Shown here in pieces: positions 4,263 through 39,659 of a DNA stretch of 46,097 bases. Source of the stretch: an uncultured Bacilli bacterium (GTDB lineage Bacteria > Bacillota_I > Bacilli_A > RF39 > UBA660); assembly GCA_947628895.1 (NCBI GenBank), contig CANRBS010000005.1:1-46097 (forward strand), in the 5' to 3' direction. The notes beneath the pieces are model-generated. The model worked only from the letters and a program-made list of their open reading frames with translations. It was not told where the DNA came from and did not search any database. Numbering within the stretch: the stretch's first letter is position 1; every line of letters begins with the position of its first letter. The position numbers and the translations under genes are program-made.

Positions 4263-6440
4263 ATGAAAAGAGTATTTGAATATGATTTTCAAGGTAGGAA
4301 ATTGGTAATAGAGCATGGAGAATTAGCTAAACAAGCAGGTGGTGCAGTACTTGTAAGATATGATGATACAGTTATATTATCTACAGCTGTTATGAGTAAT
4401 AATGTATCAACTGCAGACTTCTTCCCATTAACAATCCTTTATCAGGAAAAACTATATTCTGTTGGTAAAATCCCAGGAGGATTTATTAAAAGAGAAGGTC
4501 GTCCAACAGATGAAGCAACTCTTACTGCAAGAGTTATTGATAGACCTATAAGACCAATGTTTGATGAAAACTTTAGAAATGAAGTACAAGTTGTAAATAC
4601 AGTTTTAAGTGTAGACCCAGATAGAACACCAGAAATGACTGCAATGTTTGGTTCATCTCTAGCACTTTGTATTTCTTCAATTCCATTTGATGGTCCAGTA
4701 TCTGGAGTAATAGTTGGTAAAATTGATGGGGAACTTAAGATTAACCCAACTTGTGAAGAAATGGAAAGAAGTACAATTAATTTAACTGTTGCTGGTACTA
4801 AAGATGCTATTAACATGGTAGAAAGTGGTTCTAAACAAGTAAGTGAAGAAGAAATGTTAGAAGCATTAATGTTTGGTCATGAAGCAGTTAAAGAGTTATG
4901 TATGATCCAAGAAGACATTATAAGTGAAATAGGAGAAGAAAAAATAGAAGTTACACTAGCTACTATACCAGATGAATTAAGAAGTGAAGTAGAAGATGAT
5001 ATCAAAGAAGATATGATTGCAGCTATTCAAATTAAAGATAAACTTGAAAAGTATGCTAGAATTGATGAAGTAAAAGAAATGGCTGTTACTCACTATAGTG
5101 AAAAACATGAAGGCGAAGAAGATTTAGAAAGTAATTTAAAACTTGTTAAAAAAGTTGCTGATGAAATTGAGGGTAATGAAGTTAGAAGACTTATTACAAA
5201 TGAACATATAAGACCAGATGGAAGAGATATGGATGAAATAAGAGAATTATCAGCAGCCGTAGATTTACTTCCAAGAACACATGGTAGTGCATTATTTACA
5301 AGAGGACAAACTCAAGCACTTGCTATTACTACACTTGGTGCACAAAATGAAGAACAAATTTTAGATGGACTTGGACTTGAAGACTCTAAAAAGTTTATTT
5401 TCCATTACAACTTCCCAGCATTTAGTGTTGGTGAAACAGGAAGATATGGAGCACCTGGTAGAAGAGAAATAGGACATGGAGCTCTAGCAGAAAGAGCACT
5501 TTTACAAGTTATGCCATCTCAAGAAGAATTCCCATATACAGTAAGAGTAGTATCTGAAGTATTAGAAAGTAATGGTTCATCTAGTCAAGCAAGTATTTGT
5601 GCTGGATGTATGTCATTAATGGCTGCAGGTGTACCAATTAAAGCACCAGTTGCAGGAATTGCAATGGGACTTATTACAGAAGATGGAACATGTGACTCTA
5701 AATATACAATTTTAACAGATATTCAAGGACTTGAAGATCATATGGGAGATATGGACTTCAAAGTAGCTGGTACTAGAAAAGGAATTACAGCTCTTCAAAT
5801 GGATATTAAAATTAAAGGTGTTACTAAAGAAGTATTAAGAGAAGCTTTAGAAAAAGCACATAAAGCAAGAATGAAAATACTTGATGTTATGGAAAATACT
5901 ATTCCAGAAGTAAGACATGAATTATCACCATATGCACCTAAAATTAGAACTATGAAAATAGAACCAGAAAAAATTAAAGATGTTATTGGAAAAGGTGGAG
6001 AAACTATTACTAAGATTATATTAGAATCAAGTAATGTTCCATCAGTAAATCATAAAGATGCTGTTAAGATTGATATAGATGATGATGGAAATGTAATATG
6101 CTATCACATGAAACAAGAAGTTTTAGATAAAGCAATTTCTATGATTGAAGATATTACAAAAGAAGTTGAAATTGGAAAAGTATATACAGTAAAAGTAGTA
6201 GATATTCAAGACTTTGGTGCTTTTGTAGAATTATGGCCAGGTTGTGAAGGACTAGTTCATGTATCTCAACTTGATAATAAGAGAGTAAATCATCCAAGTG
6301 ATATTCTTAAAGTTGGAGATGAAATTGTAGTTAAAGCAATTGGTTATGATAGAAAAGGTAAATTAAACTTATCAAGAAAAGAATTATTACCAAAAGAAGA
6401 AAAGAAACCAAAAGATAAAAATTCTAAAAAAGAAGAGTAA
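4263..6440 (+). CDS. pnp: polyribonucleotide nucleotidyltransferase (PNPase)
   Basis: [52 protein letters not shown] and S1 domains; ATG at 4263 preferred (GAGGAG RBS). Confidence 0.98.
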
Positions 6441-6590: not shown

Positions 6591-8288
6591 ATGAAAAATA
6601 GAAAAGGTTTTACATTAGTAGAACTTTTAGCTGTAATAGCAATTTTAGCAATACTAGTAATCATAGCTTTGCCTAATGTGCTTAAAATGTTTAGGGATGC
6701 AAAAGTAAATACATTTACTCGTGAAGTACAAAATATAATTAGAAGTGCTGAAGATAAATATGTATCTTCATCAATTGGAAATAAAGAAATAAAATGTTTT
6801 GATAGTAGTACAAATGCATTAAATTTAGATGGAAGAAGTAATATATTGTATGTAGTTAAATTTAATGATAAAGGAAAGATAATAGAGGTAAGGGCAAGAG
6901 ATGAGGCAAATGAATTAATAGCAAATAATTCACTTGGAATACAAAGAGAAGACATAGGAAAAAAGTATAAAGTAAATGAAGCAAAAACACAAATATTAGA
7001 TTGTAGAGGAAATGAGTTAACAAGTGGAGAAAAAGTAGTATATAAAGAAAGTGAATTAAATGGGTCTGATCCAGTACTAGGAAGTGGAATGATACCAGTA
7101 ATGTTATCAGATACAGGAGTAGTAACATATGCACATGAATATGATGAGTGGTATAAATATTCATCAAAGAAATGGGCAAATGCAGTAATACTAGTAGACA
7201 AACCAAGTAAAGAGTATACTGAAGGAGATACAATATTAGAAAGTGATATAAGGGCATATTTTGTATGGATACCAAAATATAGTTATAGAATATTTAATTT
7301 GGGAGATTATGAAGGATTAGAAAGTAGTGAACCAGAAAAAAGTAGTGCTCAACAAATAGAGATAGAATTTGGAACAAGAACAACAGGAGAAGCAGAAGGT
7401 GAATGTATAACACCAATGGAAAGTGGACTTTCAAGAGCAAAGAATGCCACAAAAGATTGTCAGGTTGGAGACTTAATGACACATCCAGCATTCTTATCAA
7501 TACCATCAAATGGATTTTGGGTAGGAAAATTTGAAACAGGCTATAATCAAAATGAAGATCCAAGTCAACCTATAACTGATGAAAATATATCTACTTGGAC
7601 AAAAGAACAAGCACAAATAGATGCAGAAAATCCAACAAATATAATAGTAAAACCAAATATATATTCATGGAGATATACAACAGCATATAATGTCTTTATG
7701 AGTGCCTACAATTTTAATAGAAACCTAGATAGTCATACAATGAAAAATACAGAATGGGGAGCTGTAGCATATTTATCACACTCTATATATGGAATACAAA
7801 ATGAAGTAAGTATAAATAAAAATAGTAATTTTTTAACAGGATATGCAACTAATTCAAAATGGAATACAGATACTGGAAAATTAGCTAGTACTACAGGAAA
7901 TATAACTGGAGTATATGATATGAGTGGTGGAGCATATGAATATATGGCATCATATATTGATGGATTACCACAAACAATAAGTGGAATGGAAAGTATAGTA
8001 TCAAATGAAGAATATAATAAATATTTAGATAAATATTCAAAATTAATTACTTCAGCTACGGCATATAAATATAGAATACTCGGAGATGCAACAGGAGAAA
8101 TGGGACCATTCTATAATAATAAAAGTACATGGTATACTGATAATGCAATTTTTATTGATGAGACTAATCCTATTTTCTTTCGTGGTGGCTACATTAGTAA
8201 TACTAATGATGCTGGTCAGTTTAACTTTCATCACTATACTGGAGCACCTGTTAATCATCATAGCTTTCGTATGATTCTTGTCCTTTAA
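6591..8288 (+). CDS. type IV prepilin-like protein with C-terminal CLec/FGE-like variable domain (paralog 1; putative DGR target)
   Basis: KG|FTLVELLAVIAILAIL prepilin motif; GFWVGKFE, NTEWGAVAYL, GNITGVYDMSGGAYEY, RGG..G.F.F..G...FR C-terminus. Confidence 0.85.
   Translation: MKNRKGFTLVELLAVIAILAILVIIALPNVLKMFRDAKVNTFTREVQNIIRSAEDKYVSSSIGNKEIKCFDSSTNALNLDGRSNILYVVKFNDKGKIIEVRARDEANELIANNSLGIQREDIGKKYKVNEAKTQILDCRGNELTSGEKVVYKESELNGSDPVLGSGMIPVMLSDTGVVTYAHEYDEWYKYSSKKWANAVILVDKPSKEYTEGDTILESDIRAYFVWIPKYSYRIFNLGDYEGLESSEPEKSSAQQIEIEFGTRTTGEAEGECITPMESGLSRAKNATKDCQVGDLMTHPAFLSIPSNGFWVGKFETGYNQNEDPSQPITDENISTWTKEQAQIDAENPTNIIVKPNIYSWRYTTAYNVFMSAYNFNRNLDSHTMKNTEWGAVAYLSHSIYGIQNEVSINKNSNFLTGYATNSKWNTDTGKLASTTGNITGVYDMSGGAYEYMASYIDGLPQTISGMESIVSNEEYNKYLDKYSKLITSATAYKYRILGDATGEMGPFYNNKSTWYTDNAIFIDETNPIFFRGGYISNTNDAGQFNFHHYTGAPVNHHSFRMILVL
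8130..8288 (+). repeat. DGR-like variable region VR1
   Basis: 52 codons, gap-free against VR2/VR3; 45 of 52 codons end in C/T. Confidence 0.65.
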
Positions 8289-10880: not shown

Positions 10881-12930
10881 TTCATTTTATATAATATTAC
10901 TATTTTTAACTATATTTTATTTATTAATATATAATTTAACATTTAAAATAGAAAGTATTTATAATATTAATGAAACTAATTTTACGGTTAAAATTATTAA
11001 TTATAAAATAGATGGAGATAAACTTAATTTAACATTAAACAATAATTTAATAGGGACATATTATTTTAAAATGGAAAGTGAAAAAAATGATTTTATAAAT
11101 AATTATTCATTAAATGATACTATTAAAATAAAAGGTAGTTTAACTATTCCAAATAATAATACAATACCAAATACATTTAATTATAAAAAATATTTATATC
11201 ATAAAAATATTAAATATATTTTAAATATTGAAAGTTTTAAAAAAATAGAAACTAATAAAAATATATTATATAAAATTAAAAATTATTTTTATAAAAGAAT
11301 TAATAATATGAAATATAATAATTATATGTTTGCATTTATTCTTGGTGATAGTACACGGATAAATAATGATAGTTATAATAATTATAAAATAAATGGTGTT
11401 ACTCATTTATTTGCATTATCTGGTCTTCATGTATCTATGTTTTCTTCAATACTTTTATTTATATTAAAAAAGTTGAAATTTAATGAAAAATTATCTTTTA
11501 TATTTAGTAGTATATTTTTATTATTTTTTTCATTTATAGCATCATTTTCTCCATCAATATTACGAGCAGTAATATTTTTTATGTTATCTAATATTAATGA
11601 AATATATTATTTTTATATTAAACCTAAAAATTTATTATATTTAACATTTATTATTTTAATATTAATTAATCCAAATTATATATTTAATACTGGATTTATA
11701 TTATCTTTTACAATTACATTTTTTATATTATTTGTAAATGAAAATATTAAAATAGATAAATATTCTTTATTAAAAATAAGTCTTTTTTCATTTTTATCAA
11801 GTCTGCCAATTATAATAAATTTAAGTTATGAAATAAATATAATTGGTTTTATTAACAATCTAATATTTATACCATTTGTAAGTTCAATAGTTTTTCCATT
11901 ATCATTAATTTGTTTGTTATTTAAAAGACTTAGTTTTATATTAAATATATTTACAAATATTATGGAAACTATTTCTTTAATTAGTACAAAGATTTTAAAT
12001 TTAACAATTTATTTTCCAAAGTTTAATATATTTGAAATAGTAGTTTATTATATCTTACTTATTTTAATAATAAAAAAATATAAAAAATTAATTTATGTTT
12101 TATTTTTATTCTTATTAATTATTTATATAAAACCATATTTTAATAAAAATACTTATGTTTATTATTTAGATGTATCACAAGGTGATAGTAGTTTAATATT
12201 AACTAAAAATAATAAAACTATATTAATAGATACTGGTGGTATTATAGATAGTAAAAAGGAAGAATGGAAGAAAAGAAATAAAGAATTTAATTTAATGACT
12301 TCAAATATTATTCCATTTTTTAAAAGTATTGGAATAAAAAAAATAGATTATTTAATTCTTTCACATGGTGATACAGATCACATGGGATATTCAATTGATT
12401 TATTAAATAATTTTAAAGTAAGTGAAGTTATTTTTAATAAAGGTTCATTTAATAATTTAGAGAGTGTTTTATTAGAATTTATTAAATCAAAAAATATAAA
12501 ATATGATAGTAATTTAAATTATTTAAATGTTGATAATATAAATTTACAATTTTTAAATACAGATATTTATGATAATGAAAATGATAATTCAAATGTTATT
12601 TATACAGAAATTAATAATTATAAATTTTTATTTATGGGGGATGCTAGTAGTAAAAGAGAAGAAGATTTAATAAATAATTATAATTTAAATAATATAGATT
12701 TTTTAAAGGTATCACATCATGGATCTAATACATCAACTAATAAATATTTTACTAGTATTATTAATCCTAAATATTCTATTATTTCAGTTGGTAAAAATAA
12801 TAGATATAATCATCCAAGTAGTGAAGTCTTGAATAATTTAGTGAATAGTAAAATTTATAGAACTGATTATAATGGTACAATTGAAATAAAATTCAATAAT
12901 AAATTAAATATAAAAACTTATTTACCATAG
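10828..12930 (+). CDS. comEC: DNA uptake channel ComEC/Rec2
   Basis: HLFALSGLHV, PSILRA, LDVSQGDS, LSHGDTDHMG, KVSHHGS, N.YNHP; exact start uncertain. Confidence 0.95.
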   Translation: MVLVKHFSLRLRKILLCDSFYIILLFLTIFYLLIYNLTFKIESIYNINETNFTVKIINYKIDGDKLNLTLNNNLIGTYYFKMESEKNDFINNYSLNDTIKIKGSLTIPNNNTIPNTFNYKKYLYHKNIKYILNIESFKKIETNKNILYKIKNYFYKRINNMKYNNYMFAFILGDSTRINNDSYNNYKINGVTHLFALSGLHVSMFSSILLFILKKLKFNEKLSFIFSSIFLLFFSFIASFSPSILRAVIFFMLSNINEIYYFYIKPKNLLYLTFIILILINPNYIFNTGFILSFTITFFILFVNENIKIDKYSLLKISLFSFLSSLPIIINLSYEINIIGFINNLIFIPFVSSIVFPLSLICLLFKRLSFILNIFTNIMETISLISTKILNLTIYFPKFNIFEIVVYYILLILIIKKYKKLIYVLFLFLLIIYIKPYFNKNTYVYYLDVSQGDSSLILTKNNKTILIDTGGIIDSKKEEWKKRNKEFNLMTSNIIPFFKSIGIKKIDYLILSHGDTDHMGYSIDLLNNFKVSEVIFNKGSFNNLESVLLEFIKSKNIKYDSNLNYLNVDNINLQFLNTDIYDNENDNSNVIYTEINNYKFLFMGDASSKREEDLINNYNLNNIDFLKVSHHGSNTSTNKYFTSIINPKYSIISVGKNNRYNHPSSEVLNNLVNSKIYRTDYNGTIEIKFNNKLNIKTYLP

Positions 12931-16088: not shown

Positions 16089-16979
16089 ATGGATAAGGAA
16101 AAGTTTGAAAATTTAGATGTTATTAAATCTTTTAGTGATTATTTAAAAACTAAAAATTATTCTGATAATTCATATATTTCATATTTAAATGATTTATATT
16201 ATTTTTATATGTTTGTTCATAAAGATTTAGTTAAAGTAACTGAAGAAGATATTAGAGATTATTTAGATTATTTAAATTTACAAAAGGAAAAACCAACTTC
16301 TGTTAGGAGAAAAATAAGTACATTTAAAACATTTTATAAATTTTTATATTTAAATAATTATATTGATAAAAAAGATTATCCACTTGTTAAAATTGTATAT
16401 CCTAAATTAGAAAAAAGATTGCCTAAATTTGTATATTATAATGATTTACTTGAAATATTAAAAGAATCATTAAATGATAGTGATGGTATTAGAGATAAAT
16501 TAATAATTGAAATGCTTTATGCTACTGGAGTTAGAGTTAGTGAACTTGTAAATATTAAATATAGTGATATTGATTTTAATAATAGAAGAATTAGAGTTTG
16601 TGGAAAAGGAAATAAAGAAAGAGTTGTATATTATGGTGAATATGCAGAAGATGCATTAAAAGAATATATGTCTACTCATAAAAAGAATGAAGAAAATTAT
16701 TTATTTACTAATAGTAGAGGTGGTAATTTAACTGATAGAGGTGTTAGATATATAATAGATAATATAATGAATAAATTATCTATTAAAGTACATGTAACAC
16801 CACATGTTATAAGACATACATTTGCCACTGATATGTTAAATAATGGATGTGATATTAAAATAGTACAAGAATTACTGGGACACTCAAGTCTTAGAACTAC
16901 TGAAATATATACACATGTCACTAATGAAAGAATAAAAAAAGTATATTATGATTGTTTTCCAAGGAGGGAAGAGAAGTGA
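16089..16979 (+). CDS. xerC: tyrosine recombinase, XerC/XerD family
   Basis: LYATGVRVSEL, GKGNKER, PHVIRHTFAT, LLGHSSL..TEIY: complete catalytic set. Confidence 0.85.
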   Translation: MDKEKFENLDVIKSFSDYLKTKNYSDNSYISYLNDLYYFYMFVHKDLVKVTEEDIRDYLDYLNLQKEKPTSVRRKISTFKTFYKFLYLNNYIDKKDYPLVKIVYPKLEKRLPKFVYYNDLLEILKESLNDSDGIRDKLIIEMLYATGVRVSELVNIKYSDIDFNNRRIRVCGKGNKERVVYYGEYAEDALKEYMSTHKKNEENYLFTNSRGGNLTDRGVRYIIDNIMNKLSIKVHVTPHVIRHTFATDMLNNGCDIKIVQELLGHSSLRTTEIYTHVTNERIKKVYYDCFPRREEK

Positions 16980-32789: not shown

Positions 32790-33042
32790 TGCAAGAGCTA
32801 TGAATAGGAAGAGTAATTTATTAATTTATTATAGAGAGTTATCAAATGGTGAAAGATAATATAAATTATAAATGAAAGACACCTAGGAGCTATTTATTTG
32901 AAATAATAGTAGAATAAATCGTAAGTAAAACGTTAAATTACTAGAGTGATTATATAAATTTATATAATAAATTGGGTGGTACCGCGGATTAAAATAAAAA
33001 ACAGTTATTCGTCCCTTGTGGATAATGTAACTGTTTTTATTT
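32790..33042 (+). promoter_or_regulatory. T-box riboswitch (Asp, GAC specifier)
   Basis: AGAGA and GGTGAAA stem I motifs; GAC at 32878-32880; TGGGTGGTACCGCGG at 32973-32987; terminator aaaaacagtta..taactgttttt. Confidence 0.92.
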
Positions 33043-33054
33043 TAGGAGGGTATA

Positions 33055-34368
33055 ATGAATAAGAAAAATTTAAATGAATTAGAAAAATATTTAGATGAAA
33101 ATATTACTATTGTAGGATTTGTTGATAATATTAGAGACTTACAATATGTACAATTTCTTATTATTAGAGATAGTTATGGAAAATTACAAGTAACTATTGA
33201 AAAGAATGAAGAAAATAATAAATTAAATGAAATAGTTTCTAATTTATCATGTGAAAGTACAGTAAAAATTACAGGAAAACTTATAAAAAATGAAAAAGTA
33301 AAATTAAATGGTATGGAATTAATACCAAATGGAATTATAATAACTAGTAAATGTTTAGAAGAATTACCTATCAATTACAAAGAAATGAATTCTTCTTTAA
33401 TTGATACTAGATTAAATTATCGTTTTTTAGATTTAAGAAATGAAAAAAATAATTTAATGTTTAAAGTTCAAACTTGCCTTATTAATGCTATGAGAGAATT
33501 TGTTGTAAAAAGTAATTTTGTTGAAATCCACACACCAAAAATTATTAGTGCAGCAAGTGAATCAGGATCTGATGTTTTTGAACTTAAATATTTTGATAGA
33601 AAAGCATATTTAGCACAAAGTCCTCAATTTTATAAACAAATGGCAATGTGTAGTGGTTTTGAAAGAGTATTTGAAATAGCACCTGCTTTTAGAGCAGAAA
33701 AATCAAATTCTTATAGACATACTACTGAATTTACATCTTTTGATATAGAAATTAGTTATTTAGAAAATTTAGAAGAACTAATGGATTTTGAAGAAAATCT
33801 TATAATTGCTGGATTAAGTGAAGTAAAAGAAAAATATGAAAGTGAAATTAAAAGATTATTTAATGTAGATATTATAATTCCTACTAAACCATTTCCAAGA
33901 ATTAAATTAGAAGAATTATATAAAATTTTAGAAGAAAAATATAATTTTAAAATGAATTATGAAGATGTAGGAGATATGAATGCTGAATCAGAAAAACTAG
34001 CATCAAAATATATAAAAGAAAAATATGGACATGAATTTGTATTTATTACTGATTTTAGTGCTAAAAAAAGAGCATTTTATCATAAAAGAGAAAAAGGAAT
34101 ACCACAAGGTGCTGATTTGATATGGAAGGGTTGTGAAACAACTACTCTTGCTATTAGAGAAAATAGATATGAAATTTTATGTAATCAAGCAGAAGAAAAA
34201 GGTTTAAAAGATGATGTTAAATTCTATTTAGAATTCTTTAAATATGGATGTCCTCCACATGGTGGATTTGCAATTGGAGTAGATAGATTAACTATGTTAT
34301 TACTTGAAACAATGTCTTTGAAAGAAACAATGTTTATATTTAGAGGACCAAGTAGAATAGAACCATAA
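33055..34368 (+). CDS. aspS: aspartyl-tRNA synthetase, short archaeal/eukaryal-type (likely non-discriminating)
   Basis: RLNYRFLDLR, YLAQSPQFYKQ, FRAE.S...RH.TEF, GCPPHGGFAIGVDR; 437 aa, too short for a GAD insert; Asp T-box. Confidence 0.92.
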   Translation: MNKKNLNELEKYLDENITIVGFVDNIRDLQYVQFLIIRDSYGKLQVTIEKNEENNKLNEIVSNLSCESTVKITGKLIKNEKVKLNGMELIPNGIIITSKCLEELPINYKEMNSSLIDTRLNYRFLDLRNEKNNLMFKVQTCLINAMREFVVKSNFVEIHTPKIISAASESGSDVFELKYFDRKAYLAQSPQFYKQMAMCSGFERVFEIAPAFRAEKSNSYRHTTEFTSFDIEISYLENLEELMDFEENLIIAGLSEVKEKYESEIKRLFNVDIIIPTKPFPRIKLEELYKILEEKYNFKMNYEDVGDMNAESEKLASKYIKEKYGHEFVFITDFSAKKRAFYHKREKGIPQGADLIWKGCETTTLAIRENRYEILCNQAEEKGLKDDVKFYLEFFKYGCPPHGGFAIGVDRLTMLLLETMSLKETMFIFRGPSRIEP

Positions 34369-34391
34369 AAATAATAATTTAGGAGGATAAT

Positions 34392-34943
34392 ATGAATGAA
34401 TTAAATACAAAAAAGCTTGAAACAGAAAGGTTAATATTAAGAAAATTTGAATTAAGTGATGCTGATGGTATGTTTAATAATTGGGCAACTGATGAAAAAT
34501 CTTGTAGATATTTAAGTTGGAGTGTACCTAAAAATGTTGAAGAAACAAAGTCAGTAATAAAGTCTTGGATAGAAGAATATAAAAATGGAAGTTATAATTG
34601 GATAGTTGAATTAAAATAAACACATGAAGTAATTGGAAGTATTTGTGTAATATCAACTAGTAAAATGAATTCAACTGCTGAAGTTGGATACTCTTTTGGT
34701 TCTAAATATTGGGGATGTGGTTATGCAACCGAAGCATTAAGAAGAGTATTAGAATATTTACTTAATGATTGTGGATTTTATTTAATTGAAGCAGATTATA
34801 TAAGTGGGAATCCTGCTAGTGGAAGAGTTATGGAAAAAGCAGGAATGCATAGAGATGCAATTCTTCGTGAAAGAGGATATAATAAATATACAAATGAAAG
34901 AAATGATACAATTGTTTATTCTATAAAAAGAGATGAATTGTAG
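34392..34943 (+). pseudogene. RimJ/RimL-type GNAT acetyltransferase with in-frame stop
   Basis: LETERLILR..; TAA at 34617-34619, then the same frame continues THEVIGSI..AEVGY..YWGCGYATEAL..NPASGRVMEKAGM. Confidence 0.85.
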
Positions 34944-35050
34944 GGTAAACAACAAAAGAGAAAATAAGTAAGTAAAGTTGTAATTTACTTACTCTTTTGT
35001 TAAAATTATAATTAGTTTATTAAAACTAATTATAGATTGGAGATGAGATA

Positions 35051-36097
35051 ATGAGTAAAATAGAAGAACAAAATAATTTATTAATATATAAAAATAAAGA
35101 TGGCAATATAGTTGTTGATGCAATCTATAAAGATGAAACCCTATGGCTTACACAAAAAGGTATGTCTAAAGTCTTTGATGTTGGAGTACCAGCAATTTCA
35201 AAACATTTGAGAAATATATTTGATGAGGAAGAATTAAATGAGAGTATGGTTGTTTCCAAAATGGAAAATACCACTCAACATGGAGCGATTAAAGAAAAAA
35301 CACAAACAAATGAGGTTAAGATTTATAATCTTGATGCTATTATTGCAGTAGGTTATCGTGTTAATTCTAAAAAAGCAACTGAATTTAGAATTTGGGCAAC
35401 AAAAATACTAAAAGAATATATGATAAAAGGTTTTGCTCTAAATGATGAAAGATTTATAAATGGAAATAAATTTAGCATTAAATACTTTGATGAATTATTA
35501 GAAAGAATTAAAACCATTAGAGTAAGTGAAAGAATGTCTTATCAAAAAATAACAGATTTGTTTATTGCAACATCATCTGATTATAATCCAAAAACTGAAG
35601 AAGCATACACATTTTTTAAAATTGTACAAAACAAATTGCATTATGCAATAAGTGGTCATACAGCAGCAGAATTAATTTATACAAGGGCTAATGCTAATAA
35701 AGTAAATATGGGACTTACTAATTGGAAAAATAGTCCTGATGGGTTAATATATAAATATGATGTTTCTATAGCTAAAAACTATTTAAATGAAGAAGAATTA
35801 AATAAATTAAACCGTTTGACTATAGCATTTTTAGATTATGCTGAAGATATGGCTTATGAACATAAAGTGATGACTATGAACGATTGGATAAATGCAACCG
35901 ATAAATTATTAAAATTTAGAGAAAAAAATATTTTGACTAATTCTGGTAAAATAACCCATAAAGCTGCAGTTGATAAAGCTGAGAGGGAATATGAGAAATA
36001 TAGAGTAATTCAAGATCAAAAATATATATCTTCAATGGACGAATTCTATAAGAGATATTTTAAAGAAAATAAAGAGAGTAGTGATAAAAATGAATAA
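35051..36097 (+). CDS. RhuM family protein
   Basis: ETLWLTQK, YNLDAIIAVGYRVNS..AT.FR.WAT, IR.SER..YQK, VQNKLHYA. Confidence 0.9.
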   Translation: MSKIEEQNNLLIYKNKDGNIVVDAIYKDETLWLTQKGMSKVFDVGVPAISKHLRNIFDEEELNESMVVSKMENTTQHGAIKEKTQTNEVKIYNLDAIIAVGYRVNSKKATEFRIWATKILKEYMIKGFALNDERFINGNKFSIKYFDELLERIKTIRVSERMSYQKITDLFIATSSDYNPKTEEAYTFFKIVQNKLHYAISGHTAAELIYTRANANKVNMGLTNWKNSPDGLIYKYDVSIAKNYLNEEELNKLNRLTIAFLDYAEDMAYEHKVMTMNDWINATDKLLKFREKNILTNSGKITHKAAVDKAEREYEKYRVIQDQKYISSMDEFYKRYFKENKESSDKNE

Positions 36098-36146
36098 TAA
36101 TAAAACAAATATCAACTATTTGATTGCAATTTATTTAACCATTTAG
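36090..36146 (+). pseudogene. rbgA 5' stub 1 (MNNNKTNINY) fused to a conserved junction motif
   Basis: aataaaacaaatatcaactat matches rbgA start aataaaacaaatattaattat, then ttgattgcaatttatttaa. Confidence 0.7.
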
Positions 36147-36311
36147 TTGATGAGCAATTATAAACAAAGTTTTATTAAAAATTAAATCATGTATGGTTTA
36201 TTAAAAATGGATTAAAATTGATGAGAATCGATAATAATATAATATAAAATGGATTATGCCAATTAACTCTTTAGGATTAATAGTTAAAAGTTAACAAAAA
36301 AATTTATAGAG

Positions 36312-36842
36312 GTGATAAATTTGAAAAATATTGAACTATATGTACCAAAATTAAAAGATTACTGGTATGAAGAAAAAATACAAAAAGATCTATTATCTAT
36401 GAATTATAATGCGGGATATGATGTTTCTTATTATGGATATCATTATGATACTGGATGTATTGATTTTCCAAAAGAAAAATGGAAAGAAACTTATGAAAAG
36501 AGAAAAGATAAAAATAAATATTTTGCTTATATTAAAGATTTGGATTTAAATGAATATGTTGGATATGTAAATTATCATTACAATGGAAATGAAAATAGAT
36601 ATGAATGTGGAATATTAATAGAGAACAAATATAGAGGCTGTGGTTATTCAAAGTTAGCTTTAAAATTATTGTGTCAAGTAGCTAAAGAAAACGGAATAAA
36701 GGAATTGTATGATAATTTTGAAAAAGATAGAGATAAGGCTTTACAATTATTTAAATCAGCAGGTTTTAAAATTGTTGAAACACAAACTTGGAAAAAATTT
36801 GATAAAATGGTAGAAGGTGTATTAATTAAAATTGATTTATAA
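36312..36842 (+). CDS. GNAT family acetyltransferase
   Basis: VGYVNY, ECGILI..KYRGCGYS, LFKSAGF. Confidence 0.8.
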   Translation: MINLKNIELYVPKLKDYWYEEKIQKDLLSMNYNAGYDVSYYGYHYDTGCIDFPKEKWKETYEKRKDKNKYFAYIKDLDLNEYVGYVNYHYNGNENRYECGILIENKYRGCGYSKLALKLLCQVAKENGIKELYDNFEKDRDKALQLFKSAGFKIVETQTWKKFDKMVEGVLIKIDL

Positions 36843-36948
36843 AAAATGATATAAATGGACAATCAACAAAATAAGTTACTACTTTTTTGATTAGGAATTA
36901 GACAACTGATTACGATAATGAAACTATACAAAAAGTATCTACTATAAA

Positions 36949-37068
36949 ATGAAAGGTAAAACGAAAAAAGAAAGATTTGAAATATTAAGTGATATATGTA
37001 AATATCAATTAGATATTTTAAATAATTTTGAAAAAATTAAATTATTAAATGAAAAAGGTAGTGATTAA
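36949..37068 (+). pseudogene. short ORF or 3' remnant of an eroded gene
   Basis: 39-codon frame ending ...ggtagtgattaa, the same RBS-bearing tail style as the rhuM genes, directly before stub 2. Confidence 0.35.
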
Positions 37069-37069
37069 A

Positions 37070-37129
37070 ATGTCAAATGAAGAAAAAAATTTTCAAAAAA
37101 CAAACATCAATTGGTTGATTACGATTTAA
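37070..37129 (+). pseudogene. rbgA 5' stub 2 (MSNEEKNFQKTNINW) fused to a conserved junction motif
   Basis: aaaacaaacatcaattgg then ttgattacgatttaattaa. Confidence 0.7.
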
Positions 37130-37313
37130 TTAAGAACACTTGTAACTTCTTATAAATAAAGGAACTTATCTAATTTTGATTTTTCATCTTTTTATTAAAT
37201 AAGGATCAAAATATTAAAAAATTATTAAGATTATAGTATTTTTAGTATAATTTGTATTAGAAATTAGAAGGGTGATTACGACATTTAAGAACATATGAAA
37301 AGGAGATGATAAA

Positions 37314-38339
37314 ATGACAAAAGATTTAATGATTAGAAGTAGTGCTGAAGAGTTTATTACTTTTAAAGTACAAGAAAAAGATAAAGGTATTCAAGTAAGA
37401 TATGAAAGTGAAACTCTTTGGATGACTCAAAAGGCAATTGCAGAACTTTTTGATGTTCAAAGACCAGCTATTACAAAACATTTGAATAACATTTTTAAAG
37501 AAAATGAATTGGATAGAAAAGCAGTATGTTCCATTTTGGAACATACTGCTGAAGATGGAAAAAAGTATCAAACAAAATATTATAATTTAGATGCAATAAT
37601 TTCTGTAGGATACAGAGTGAATTCAATTAGGGCTACTCAATTTAGAAGATGGGCTACTAGTGTTTTAAAGACTTTTACGATTCAAGGTTATGTATTAGAT
37701 AAAGAAAGAATGAAAAACGGCTCATTTATTGATAAAGATTATTTTGAGAAGTTACTTGAAGAAATAAGAGAAATACGATTGTCTGAAAGAAGATTTTATC
37801 AAAAAGTAACAGATATATATGCAACAAGCATTGACTATGACCCTAAATCTCCTATTTCTATAGATTTTTTTAAAAAAGTTCAAAACAAAATGCACTACGC
37901 TGTTTCAAAACAAACTGCTGCTGAAATAATATATGATAGAGTAGATGCGAATAAAGAACATATGGGTTTAACATCATGGAAAAATTCACCAAATGGAAAA
38001 ATAATAGAATCAGATGTTATTATTGCTAAAAATTATTTATCTGAAGAAGAAATTAAAGATTTAGAAAGAATTGTTAGTGCATTTTTAGAAATTGCAGAAA
38101 ATCGGGCAAGAAGACATATACCAATGACAATGGAAGATTGGGCAAATAGAATTGATAAATTTTTACTTGCAGATGATAGAGATATATTAAAAGATGCCGG
38201 AAAAATATCACACGAAATTGCTTGTGATAAAGCTTTAACAGAATTTGAAAAGTATAGAATAAAACAAGATAAATTATATAAATCAGATTTTGATTTGTTA
38301 ATAGAAGAAAGTAAAAGTAGTGGTGATAAAAATGAATGA
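37314..38339 (+). CDS. RhuM family protein (second, divergent copy)
   Basis: ETLWMTQK, YNLDAIISVGYRVNS.RATQFRRWAT, IREIRLSERRFYQK. Confidence 0.9.
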   Translation: MTKDLMIRSSAEEFITFKVQEKDKGIQVRYESETLWMTQKAIAELFDVQRPAITKHLNNIFKENELDRKAVCSILEHTAEDGKKYQTKYYNLDAIISVGYRVNSIRATQFRRWATSVLKTFTIQGYVLDKERMKNGSFIDKDYFEKLLEEIREIRLSERRFYQKVTDIYATSIDYDPKSPISIDFFKKVQNKMHYAVSKQTAAEIIYDRVDANKEHMGLTSWKNSPNGKIIESDVIIAKNYLSEEEIKDLERIVSAFLEIAENRARRHIPMTMEDWANRIDKFLLADDRDILKDAGKISHEIACDKALTEFEKYRIKQDKLYKSDFDLLIEESKSSGDKNE

Positions 38340-38784
38340 CAAAGAAAAAAACTATAATTCTCATGCAAAATTTATGGCAGATATAGCTTTAGCAATACTA
38401 GAAGGCAATAAAGATGTACTTGATGTAAACGGAGTCAAAGAAATAATATCGTTATATTTATTAATTCCGTATATCTATAAAGGACCATCTGGACAATTAG
38501 AGACCCCAGGACCTAATTATATTGTTCCTAAAGTGCGCGGAAATTTTTGTGACGATATAACACTGGAAAATTTGAGAGATGCTTTATGCCATTCTTTTAT
38601 TACAACAGAAGAAGATAAAAATGATGGAACTATGCATGGGAAATATTTAATATTAGATGATAGAGCCAAATATAGTAGAAAAGAACATGATAAATTATCT
38701 TCTAAATTAGGTACGACCTGTATCGATACTAATTATTCGCATAGAAAACTAGTTGAATTATTTAATGAAATTATTAATAATTAA
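38332..38784 (+). CDS. hypothetical protein with HEPN-like RxxxxH motif
   Basis: LENLRDALCHSF; ATG at 38332 overlaps the rhuM 3' end. Confidence 0.55.
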   Translation: MNDKEKNYNSHAKFMADIALAILEGNKDVLDVNGVKEIISLYLLIPYIYKGPSGQLETPGPNYIVPKVRGNFCDDITLENLRDALCHSFITTEEDKNDGTMHGKYLILDDRAKYSRKEHDKLSSKLGTTCIDTNYSHRKLVELFNEIINN

Positions 38785-38798
38785 AATGGAGGTTAATT

Positions 38799-39659
38799 AT
38801 GATGAATGAAAATAAAACAAATATTAATTATTATCCAGGCCACATGTATAAAACTAGAAAAGATATTAAAAATATTATTTCTAATATTGATATAGTAATA
38901 GAAGTAATAGATTCAAGAATACCATTTTCATCTAGAATACCTGATTTAAAAAATATAATTAATGGTAAAAAAAGTATTATTGTATTTAATAAATATGATT
39001 TATGTGATGAAAGTATTACTAATAAATGGATAGAAAAATATAAAAATGAAGGAAGTATTGTAATTACTAGTGATGCTAAAAATTCAAATGACTATAAAAA
39101 AGTTATTGAAGAGGTTAAATCATTAATGATAGAAATAAATGAGAAAAGACATCTAAAAGGACTACTTCCTAAAAAAGCAAAATGTTTGATAATAGGAGTT
39201 CCAAATGTTGGAAAAAGTACTTTAATTAATAAACTTATTGGTAAAAGTATATTAGGTGTTGGAAATAAACCAGGTGTTACTAAAAAATTAAATATTGTTA
39301 AAATAAATGAATATATGGATTTAGTAGATACTCCAGGAATATTATGGCCTAAATTTGAAAATAATGAAGTTGCATTAAATCTTGCAAGTATGACAATTAT
39401 TAAAGAAGAAGTATTAACAGTAGAACAAATAGCAATTCATATTTTAAAGAAATTAAGTGATTATTATCCATCAATATTAAGTAAAGAATTTGGAATAGAA
39501 AAGTATAATGATGAAGAAGTAGAAGAGTGTTTTACAAAAATTTCTAAATATAAAAATATAATAGTTAAAGGTGAAGTTGACTATGAAAGAGTAAGTACTT
39601 TAATACTAAATTCTATAAAACAAGAGAAGGTAAAAAAGATTACATTTGATAGAATTTAA
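38799..39659 (+). CDS. rbgA: ribosome biogenesis GTPase RbgA (YlqF)
   Basis: YPGHM, DSRIP, NKYD, GVPNVGKS, PGVT, DTPGILWP. Confidence 0.96.
   Translation: MMNENKTNINYYPGHMYKTRKDIKNIISNIDIVIEVIDSRIPFSSRIPDLKNIINGKKSIIVFNKYDLCDESITNKWIEKYKNEGSIVITSDAKNSNDYKKVIEEVKSLMIEINEKRHLKGLLPKKAKCLIIGVPNVGKSTLINKLIGKSILGVGNKPGVTKKLNIVKINEYMDLVDTPGILWPKFENNEVALNLASMTIIKEEVLTVEQIAIHILKKLSDYYPSILSKEFGIEKYNDEEVEECFTKISKYKNIIVKGEVDYERVSTLILNSIKQEKVKKITFDRI

Follow-up and report, generated by a model that had tools for sequence, protein, structure and literature searches.

We analyzed a window of 46,097 nucleotides (contig CANRBS010000005.1 of assembly GCA_947628895.1, positions 1 to 46,097 of the forward strand) from an uncultured Bacilli bacterium of the UBA660 lineage, focusing on the region that leads into rbgA. 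This essential gene, which acts in ribosome assembly (38799-39659), is assigned to the TIGR03596 YlqF equivalog by NCBIfam (302.9 bits versus a cut-off of 208.2), and upstream of it lie two stranded copies of its own start, here called stubs, interspersed with accessory genes. The window contains a modest and partly decayed instance of a type of cassette stack that is widespread in front of rbgA. The features of this region are listed below; G, C, L and F numbers are our handles for genomes, contigs, loci and families of units, and ORF stands for open reading frame.

33055..34368, plus strand: Asp-tRNA(Asn) ligase gene (Pfam tRNA-synt_2; NCBIfam NF003483, 443.7 bits versus a cut-off of 353)
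34392..34943, plus strand: GNAT acetyltransferase gene with an in-frame stop at 34617-34619, the N and C halves of Acetyltransf_3 lying in two ORFs (34392-34619 and 34665-34943)
35051..36097, plus strand: RhuM-family gene 1 (RhuM1; PF13310, 2.6e-99; PADLOC PDC-S05, 5e-131), cargo of the unit ending in stub 1
36090..36119, plus strand: stub 1, stranded rbgA start MNNNKTNINY (then LIAIYLTI and a stop); junction 36119/36120
36120..36168, plus strand: left end of the next unit, TTGATTGCAATTTATTTAA ... TTATAAACAAAG; the same end type follows stubs in G010, L056, L058, L064, L076 and G050
36312..36842, plus strand: GNAT acetyltransferase gene 2 (Acetyltransf_1)
36949..37068, plus strand: C-terminal remnant of a KilA-N gene, 39 aa, 75% identical to residues 243-274 of a 298-aa G010 protein
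37070..37114, plus strand: stub 2, stranded rbgA start MSNEEKNFQKTNINW (then LITI and a stop), a start type carried by KilA-N units; junction 37114/37115
37115..37163, plus strand: left end of the rbgA-proximal unit, TTGATTACGATTTAATTAA ... TTATAAATAAAG
37314..38339, plus strand: RhuM-family gene 2 (RhuM2; PF13310, 3e-109)
38332..38784, plus strand: 150-aa ORF, possible HEPN nuclease, its start overlapping the RhuM2 stop
38799..38831, plus strand: live rbgA start MMNENKTNINY, then YPGHM (ribosome-binding site GGAGG at 38789-38793); junction 38831/38832
38832..39659, plus strand: resident rbgA body from YPGHM onward (TIGR03596 profile positions 1-276 align from residue 9)
From 39754, plus strand: Lon

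The live start and both stubs leave mutual homology after the same Trp/Tyr codon. Stub 1 is identical to the live start at 27/31 nt (87%) and, left end included, shares 75% identity over 51 nt with stub 2 (both by repeat finder), a GTGAT motif stands 5-6 nt 5' of each stub ATG (for stub 1 within the tail of RhuM1), and TTATAAAYAAAG recurs at 36157-36168 and 37149-37160, i.e., 37 and 34 nt past the stub junctions. A 19-nt pattern, AAAACAAAYATYAAYTRKT, matches the window three times, and TTGATTRCRATTTAWTTAA, which continues both stubs, matches it twice, versus 0 matches for either in each of 100 shuffles; taken alone, these tests are circular because the patterns were derived from the same copies, and it is other genomes that support them independently. 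At the unit ends, the repeat search detected no inverted repeats other than 70-80% AT-rich background pairs (no attC model was used). Within the 1.46-Mb, 76-contig genome, a peptide-pattern scan for further stub copies returned the three window copies together with chance matches. A DNA match on contig C40 was rejected by eye as an AT-rich chance match on the minus strand, and the other DNA matches were weak and AT-rich.

We also observed a degenerate second copy of the left-end motif (GGTGATTACGAC... / GGTAATAACGACTTATGGAAAAC) 117-161 nt past the junction, just before the cargo gene (window 37272-37288 and 36908-36917; L047, from G010, ~4450-4470; L094 ~4381; L105 ~8051). Such a copy follows 4/36 distinct left ends examined, a fifth downstream match (L080) looking unrelated. 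The copy may have been left behind by a unit since lost, or may serve as a second site for binding.

RbgA was located in 47/50 genomes of the genus and in 37/41 genomes of a wider sample; 18 + 20 upstream regions were fetched from relatives, and metagenome contigs scanned with RbgA gave 53 loci (best identity 78%), none of them from the window's own species, although near-identical records may be missing from this collection. We called stubs by all-frame translation as Ile/Val-Asn/Gln-Trp sites at which the 8 residues before the site are similar to those of a live RbgA start, limiting the counts to loci with at least 1 kb upstream and leaving out eleven loci in which the script found no live junction, one of which (G054) has a stub. 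At least one stub is present in 6/32 genome loci (G000, G010, G025, G042, G044 and G050) and in 19/35 metagenome loci, or 14/18 of those with at least 8 kb upstream, and up to 5 are stacked in front of a single rbgA gene. All 49 stubs, from 25 loci, leave rbgA homology after a Trp (rarely Tyr) codon. The sequence that follows them falls into about a dozen left-end types with ...ACGAYTTATGGAAAAC... and CTTATAAATAAAG in common; the latter, with up to 2 mismatches allowed, is found at +20 to +60 of 23/49 stubs versus 90/1840 random positions. The same kind of variable stack is present at rbgA in many uncultured gut bacteria.

Across the 53 metagenome contigs and ~45 genus genomes, the rbgA N terminus that precedes Ile-Asn/Gln-Trp is swapped between strains: rbgA bodies that are 98-100% identical carry at least four different live N termini, and the same N termini are found as stubs in other contigs. 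The start MSNEEKSFQKTNINW, near-identical to that of stub 2, serves as the live start in L081, L090 and L105 and occurs as a stub in L082, L083, L086-L088, L094, L097 and L101. The recombining partners all share AT(H)AAYTGG, the bases that follow vary (T, G or A), and one unit family occurs with two versions of the first three bases past the junction. Four genomes of the genus have a contig that breaks off precisely at RbgA residue 10-11 (G004:C27, G013:C24, G060:C21 and G063:C19), which is what population heterogeneity at that point would produce.

We consider it likely that a hypervariable island arose here through repeated site-specific insertion into rbgA, and that 34.4-38.8 kb is the portion of it nearest to that gene. 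The insertion point, and with it the crossover, would lie at or beside the Trp/Tyr codon just 5' of the conserved YPGHM motif, and a unit, presumably entering as a circle, would consist of a ~45-bp left end, cargo co-oriented with rbgA, and a right end that carries a ribosome-binding site and a replacement rbgA start. On insertion the start of the unit would be joined to the resident rbgA body, with the old start staying behind as a dead stub fused to the left end of the unit; because each insertion strands the previous start upstream, the newest unit would be the one that adjoins rbgA, and the live start in the window presumably came with the last unit to insert. The exchange would be catalyzed by a large serine recombinase (LSR), whose gene stands, alone or in a pair, at the right end of larger units. 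Recombinase-less units of 1-2 kb, such as those of the window, would be moved in trans, as recombinase-less cassettes like those of the staphylococcal cassette chromosome (SCC) are by Ccr.

The segments between junctions number 45 and fall into 22 families, with unit sizes of 0.7-5.6 kb. Family F1 (~1 kb; 9 copies) carries a KilA-N gene and the start MSNEEKSFQKTNINW, and F2 (~1.2 kb; 5 copies) carries a RhuM gene. The neighbor on the 3' side of F1 can be F2, F3, F8, F19 or rbgA itself, and the order of units changes, from F1, F2 in G010, L087 and L088 to F2, F5, F1, F3 in L082 and L101. The RbgA bodies define two species groups (98-100% identity within, 82-83% between). In one of them the arrays before rbgA read F3, F6-F1, F8 or F7-F6-F1-F19, and in the other F1 (L081, L105), F1-F2 (L087, L088) or F2-F16 (L089), so that F2 and F16, neither of which has a recombinase gene, are precisely present or absent at the junction within one species. 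The F1 copies of L083 and L090/L097 match at 98.7-98.8% identity, compared with 82-83% for the rbgA bodies of the same loci, and this unit has therefore been transferred between species. Cargo across the units includes KilA-N, Bro-N, ADP-ribosylglycohydrolase, a UDG-like protein, an RNase T-like exonuclease and an OLD/GajA-like ATPase, and further RhuM and GNAT enzymes, together with proteins that, by eye from translated ORFs only, look like membrane proteins.

The interval upstream of rbgA is neither conserved nor colinear among relatives, and clustering of the ORFs of the first 18 regions with those of the window returned genes that are mostly locus-unique and co-oriented. The anchor is rplS-lepB, with lepB abutting rbgA in the outgroup G028 and lying 6-10 kb from it in G002, G011, G016 and G058; in the genome of the window, rplS-lepB is on another contig (C1 27150-28022) and is followed by unrelated genes. 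The ancestral linkage of rplS-lepB with rbgA is broken here and kept in G058, the closest relative (rbgA body 96% identical at the amino acid level), which lacks the RhuM1/stub 1 block and shares both GNAT genes. Because the second GNAT gene of G058 lies directly before rbgA, window positions 36874-38801 have no counterpart there.

The array of the window is secondarily decayed: its first GNAT gene is split (94.6% nucleotide identity to the intact 188-aa gene of G058), its KilA-N gene has suffered an internal deletion, a further event that is not site-specific, and its GNAT module sits in a KilA-N-type unit. The full-length G010 homolog of the 39-aa KilA-N remnant has a PF04383 KilA-N domain, proteins of this kind (~280-300 aa) are intact in G010 and in metagenome contigs, and stub 2 together with the remnant is a decayed F1-type unit. 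At present the array in this genome is probably inactive.

Such decay is what would be expected if the locus were only a graveyard, in which each stub records a full-size, recombinase-bearing element that was later deleted, the 1-2 kb units were never mobile themselves, and differences in order reflect independent acquisitions and homologous recombination between strains. In its favor are truncated LSR genes fused to other fragments (F5, F7, F13, F14 and L065), the internally deleted KilA-N gene and split GNAT gene of the window, some unit-to-unit joins that lack a left end (L082 at 7304), and a difference between G000 and G058 that is not bounded by a junction. We nevertheless regard this explanation as unlikely, since F1 and F2 keep the same two boundaries in at least five different neighborhoods and show no recombinase scar between cargo and start (the KilA-N ORF of G010 runs straight into its rbgA start), and F2 and F16 are precisely present or absent within one species; the graveyard reading would require repeated, identical, clean deletions.

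Repeated insertion of mobile units calls for a recombinase, which is most likely an LSR of a clade dedicated to the rbgA site, judging from the genes found there. In G010 a gene with Resolvase, Recombinase and Zn_ribbon_recom domains, interrupted by one TAA stop, stands directly before rbgA, and in G050 an LSR with the same domains, full length except for one frameshift, stands directly before rbgA at the right end of a 10.7-kb stub-bounded unit. The G050 frameshift falls in an A-run (L118, oriented ~10920-10935) and could be an assembly error or a real inactivation. G017 has a 118-aa LSR remnant before its rbgA start, a C-terminal LSR fragment lies ~0.8 kb upstream of the rbgA start in L123 (G053), and 13 metagenome loci have LSR fragments before the rbgA start or a stub. 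Recombinases with PF07508 are present in 44/50 genus genomes and lie within 1 kb of rbgA only in G010, G017 and G050.

An alignment of three of these sequences scanned against one genome per species returned 80 LSR loci. Only 6/80 reach at least 38% identity. In 5 of these, rbgA follows at a distance of 50-150 bp, and in the sixth, L131, a start of the rbgA type runs into a left end that bears the TTATAAATAAAGG / CCCTTATAAATAAAGG motif; no rbgA was found near the other 74/80, at 32% identity or less. This LSR clade is linked to the rbgA site across genera. Intact LSRs occur in other genera as tandem pairs (550-571 aa and 523-532 aa; two each in L129, L131, L132 and L133, four of the six loci), and the array remnants are closer to the rbgA-proximal member (39-61% identity) than to the distal one (28-50%). 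A conserved 91-aa DUF6870 ORF precedes the tandem LSRs (L129 7391-7663; L131 7389-7664; L132 968-1246). LSRs of this type do not score as Ccr (CcrB model 57-94 bits and CcrC 85 bits, versus cut-offs of 900). The genome of the window encodes four LSRs, the nearest of which (contig C13) is 30-39% identical to the site-linked clade and has an unrelated context, and no recombinase domain was found by Pfam in the window between 33 and 40 kb.

A tyrosine recombinase acting in trans, either a visiting Tn5253-type Int/Xis or host XerC/D, would make the LSR genes mere cargo or unrelated elements. The streptococcal literature does place Tn5253 and other elements with tyrosine integrases at the rbgA 5' end (PMC8571831, PMC6079316, PMC4701971), the 9-12 bp common to the recombining partners is typical of tyrosine systems, and the genome holds five PF00589 matches, the one nearest to the array being an XerC-like gene at 16089-16979, 22 kb upstream of rbgA. 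That gene scores 291.9 bits with XerC (cut-off 335) and 126 bits with the integron-integrase model (cut-off 265) and gave no sign of a link to the array. We find this explanation improbable, because no tyrosine recombinase ORF turned up among the ORFs of at least 60 aa in representatives of 20/22 unit families and no such domain in the two units of the window, because LSR genes alone represent recombinases at the site and invariably lie next to the junction, where an integrase gene is typically placed, and because the association is specific to one clade across genera, in 6/6 of the closest LSR loci.

Preferring site-specific insertion by an LSR, we turn to a reading without any site-specific system, in which the rbgA 5' end was duplicated or gene-converted and unequal homologous recombination shuffled the island. 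Left ends weakly resemble post-junction rbgA (...ACGACTTATGGAAAAC versus ...CCACATGGCTAAAAC) and N termini are exchanged between units with the same cargo, as this would predict; yet exchange between direct repeats deletes or duplicates and does not reverse the order of units, one break codon is used in 49/49 stubs despite starts that are very different in length and sequence, and the divergence of the stubs (75% identity over 51 nt) is far above that of recent duplicates, so that we rate it slightly below even the tyrosine alternative. Chimeric assembly at a repeat of this metagenome-assembled genome, to which its 76 contigs, its 4.6% contamination and the contig ends at rbgA residue 10-11 in G004, G013, G060 and G063 might point, deserves hardly any credence, since run X1, possibly the source sample, has short contigs that span the two stub junctions as well as the RhuM2/ORF/rbgA join (36010-36332, 37044-37351 and 38310-39579) with 0-2 differences, 38310-38824 is unchanged in runs from other studies, and the same architecture is present in dozens of independent assemblies.

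The public runs were served as short assembled contigs, and their much higher depth over both RhuM genes is not to be read as copy number, because it reflects many organisms. Two joints seen in them, 38330 to 38802 (skipping the 150-aa ORF) and 38337 back to 37097 (the RhuM2 end to a TTGATTACG-type left end), rest on flanks of 21-30 nt, matched at a 90% threshold, in metagenomes that are complex, and were not used as evidence.

Several points weigh against the proposed history of repeated site-specific insertion. The difference between the window and G058 ends at the start ATG (38802) rather than at the junction codon, and the GNAT module is embedded in a KilA-N-type unit; ordinary deletion and recombination therefore shape the island too. 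The two units of the window are singletons among the 22 families, and neither an empty/filled pair nor a circular form was seen for them in assembled contigs. The same cargo, the RhuM1-type F2, occurs with three different N termini, contrary to what the simple model would lead one to expect. At two of the window's three junctions the codon is TAT, not TGG, and such a mixture fits neither a crossover before the codon nor one after it without extra assumptions. This 92%-complete genome has no LSR of the site-linked clade, and within the genus each rbgA-adjacent LSR (G010, G017 and G050) is broken. Finally, two species dominate the metagenome loci, so the stub locus counts given above are not independent.

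The statements of an earlier note, made from the sequence alone, on the live start, the two dead starts broken at one codon, their shared non-rbgA end and the GTGAT ahead of each stub all hold, as does its remark that the units have no integrase. The gene that it called aspS is instead that of an Asp-tRNA(Asn) ligase; it forms the left edge of the array in this contig and is probably accessory itself, a genome-wide search at E<=1e-50 having found a homolog in 0/4 close relatives and all 18 + 20 fetched regions lacking it in the 10-12 kb upstream of rbgA. The first two GNAT ORFs (34392-34619 and 34665-34943) are now recognized as one gene split by a stop, and the 39-aa ORF is indeed a gene remnant, here identified as the C terminus of a KilA-N protein. 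GNAT gene 2 is 92% identical in nucleotides to the gene directly before rbgA in G058 and 68-69% identical in amino acids to genes ~3 kb upstream of rbgA in G014 and G016. RhuM1 has homologs (77-80% identical) that in G010 stand directly 5' of a live or stranded rbgA start and in G018, G042 and G043 lie in the vicinity of rbgA; RhuM2 homologs (84% identical) stand directly 5' of the live rbgA in G006 and within another unit in G054.

The note's HEPN-like ORF (38332-38784) is possibly a HEPN nuclease, as a lead only: it has no Pfam, PADLOC or NCBIfam match and no homolog in any fetched upstream locus, while a language-model feature search placed PF18736, a HEPN family, in 26/30 neighbors (scores 0.94) and an R-x4-H motif is visible. 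The first codons of this ORF (MNDKEKNYNSH..., 38332-38375) and its overlap with the RhuM2 stop resemble the join of RhuM to the rbgA start in G006, and the segment could be a third, degenerate junction, a former rbgA start that now starts the HEPN-like ORF.

Around the ligase start (32994-33081), the upstream region and first ~9 codons resemble the intact GNAT start of G058 (80.7% over 88 nt versus L109, G058, 7157-7242), and the window GNAT gene itself (34386-34410) has a different ribosome-binding site and a shortened start compared with that of G058. The GNAT and ligase starts repeat, at another gene, the footprint of a new start with the old start left behind. Between the first GNAT gene and RhuM1, an inverted repeat followed by a T-run (34968-34992) looks terminator-like by eye, a promoter-like site lies upstream of RhuM1 (34984-35012), and the GNAT/RhuM1 boundary has no stub. 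A scan of 32.7-39.0 kb called no plus-strand terminator within the array, and a promoter scan of the same interval gave 34 promoter-like sites versus a shuffle mean of 51.8, i.e., fewer, which is uninformative on unit expression.

The wider proposal of the earlier note, that cassette insertion regenerates rbgA and pushes the old start upstream, gains support from the swapped N termini, the reordered units, the strain polymorphism and the site-linked LSRs. Where it looked to relatives, the interval proved variable, stubs turned up at other genome and metagenome loci, the junction motif was conserved across loci, and a co-occurring recombinase family emerged, of serine type, unlike the tyrosine type of Tn5253. 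Its statement that rbgA is a Tn5253 target was correct, and its term "integron-like" holds only as an analogy, the array having no IntI and apparently no attC.

More tentatively, and with rather less confidence than in the island itself, we propose that the first codons of rbgA may be the capture site of a serine-recombinase gene-capture platform in uncultured gut Bacilli, an independently evolved counterpart of the integron. Recombinase-less one-gene cassettes, many of them phage-defense-flavored, would leave the array, pass from one species to another and insert again, all in trans, and each would provide rbgA with a ribosome-binding site and an N terminus; a cassette that supplies the rbgA start would also couple its own transcription to that of an essential gene. 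Should trans mobility of the units prove real, this would be a second, independently evolved cassette-capture system and, if true, a natural hotspot for finding defense genes in an uncultured lineage. The locus might also yield serine recombinases whose bacterial target site is defined and conserved, and the RbgA N-terminal extension in these bacteria tolerates almost any sequence of 7-30 residues.

Among known systems, integrons share with the array co-oriented, mostly single-gene cassettes at one fixed site, in variable order and with cassettes common to species. The array differs in having no IntI-type tyrosine recombinase beside the insertion site, in an insertion point that lies within an essential coding sequence, and in cassettes that carry the translation signals of the resident gene instead of depending on a Pc promoter. 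SXT in prfC and the dusA-specific islands also replace the 5' end of their target gene and are single large elements with tyrosine integrases; we know of no cassette stacks described at islands of this type. LSR integrative elements have an LSR beside the attachment site, as do the relatives G010, G050, L129, L131, L132 and L133, whereas the array of the window has no LSR and its genome none of the clade.

Nucleotide 20 of the rbgA coding sequence falls, as we take it from the pneumococcal RbgA N terminus, just past the conserved Trp codon. Tn5253 inserts after nucleotide 20, with attL equal to attB and attR formed by the element's own copy (attTn), which restores the gene, and with tyrosine int/xis at the right end beside rbgA (PMC8571831, PMC6079316). 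Among streptococcal conjugative elements, some with tyrosine integrases insert at the rbgA 5' end, and serine integrases, in Ambroset et al., target rumA, hsdM, traG and mutT, not rbgA (PMC4701971); in Streptococcus suis, partial elements occur at rbgA and tandem accretion occurs in general (PMC7168690). Tn5253 and the array share the target gene and, apparently, the spot, the first codons being replaced and the old copy kept, and in the array, as in Tn5253/Tn5252, site-specific insertion falls within the first rbgA codons and leaves the start duplicated. In place of a tyrosine integrase and excisionase at the right end, relatives of the array have Resolvase/Recombinase/Zn_ribbon_recom genes. 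Tn5253 is a conjugative element of the 60-kb class, whereas the array consists mostly of recombinase-less units of 0.7-5.6 kb with one to few genes and has up to 5 stubs. Pfam found no conjugation genes among the unit ORFs of the window, a result of a general rather than a conjugation-directed search, and the larger LSR elements (L129-L133) were annotated for recombinases, the DUF6870 ORF and a ParA-like ORF only.

The functionally closest analog of the array is the SCC composite island, in which LSRs, often paired, insert at a conserved gene end and regenerate the gene, cassettes accumulate in tandem, recombinase-less units are mobilized in trans, and the cargo is rich in anti-phage genes (PMC11470126); a related cassette chromosome system is described in enterococci (PMC6222049). 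The array has the same tandem accretion of recombinase-less units with repeats of the target-gene end between them, and comparable cargo (RhuM with PDC-S05, OLD/GajA-like ATPase, KilA-N, Bro-N and the HEPN-like ORF). It lacks CcrA/B or CcrC, its site-linked LSRs scoring far below the Ccr cut-offs of 900, and it occupies the 5' end of rbgA, whereas SCC occupies the 3' end of rlmH; because the target is a 5' end, an array unit has to bring along a ribosome-binding site, a start codon and the codons of the N terminus. Array units are also much smaller than SCC and mostly single-gene. Insertion at the rbgA start (Tn5253) and tandem accretion of recombinase-less units (SCC) are thus each already known. 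The literature searched holds no description of such rbgA arrays, although supplementary tables could hold relevant rows, and within that literature the combination is new: stacked units, mostly of a single gene, at one codon of an essential gene, rewriting of its N terminus by each unit, linkage to a dedicated LSR clade, and sharing across species of small-genome gut bacteria.

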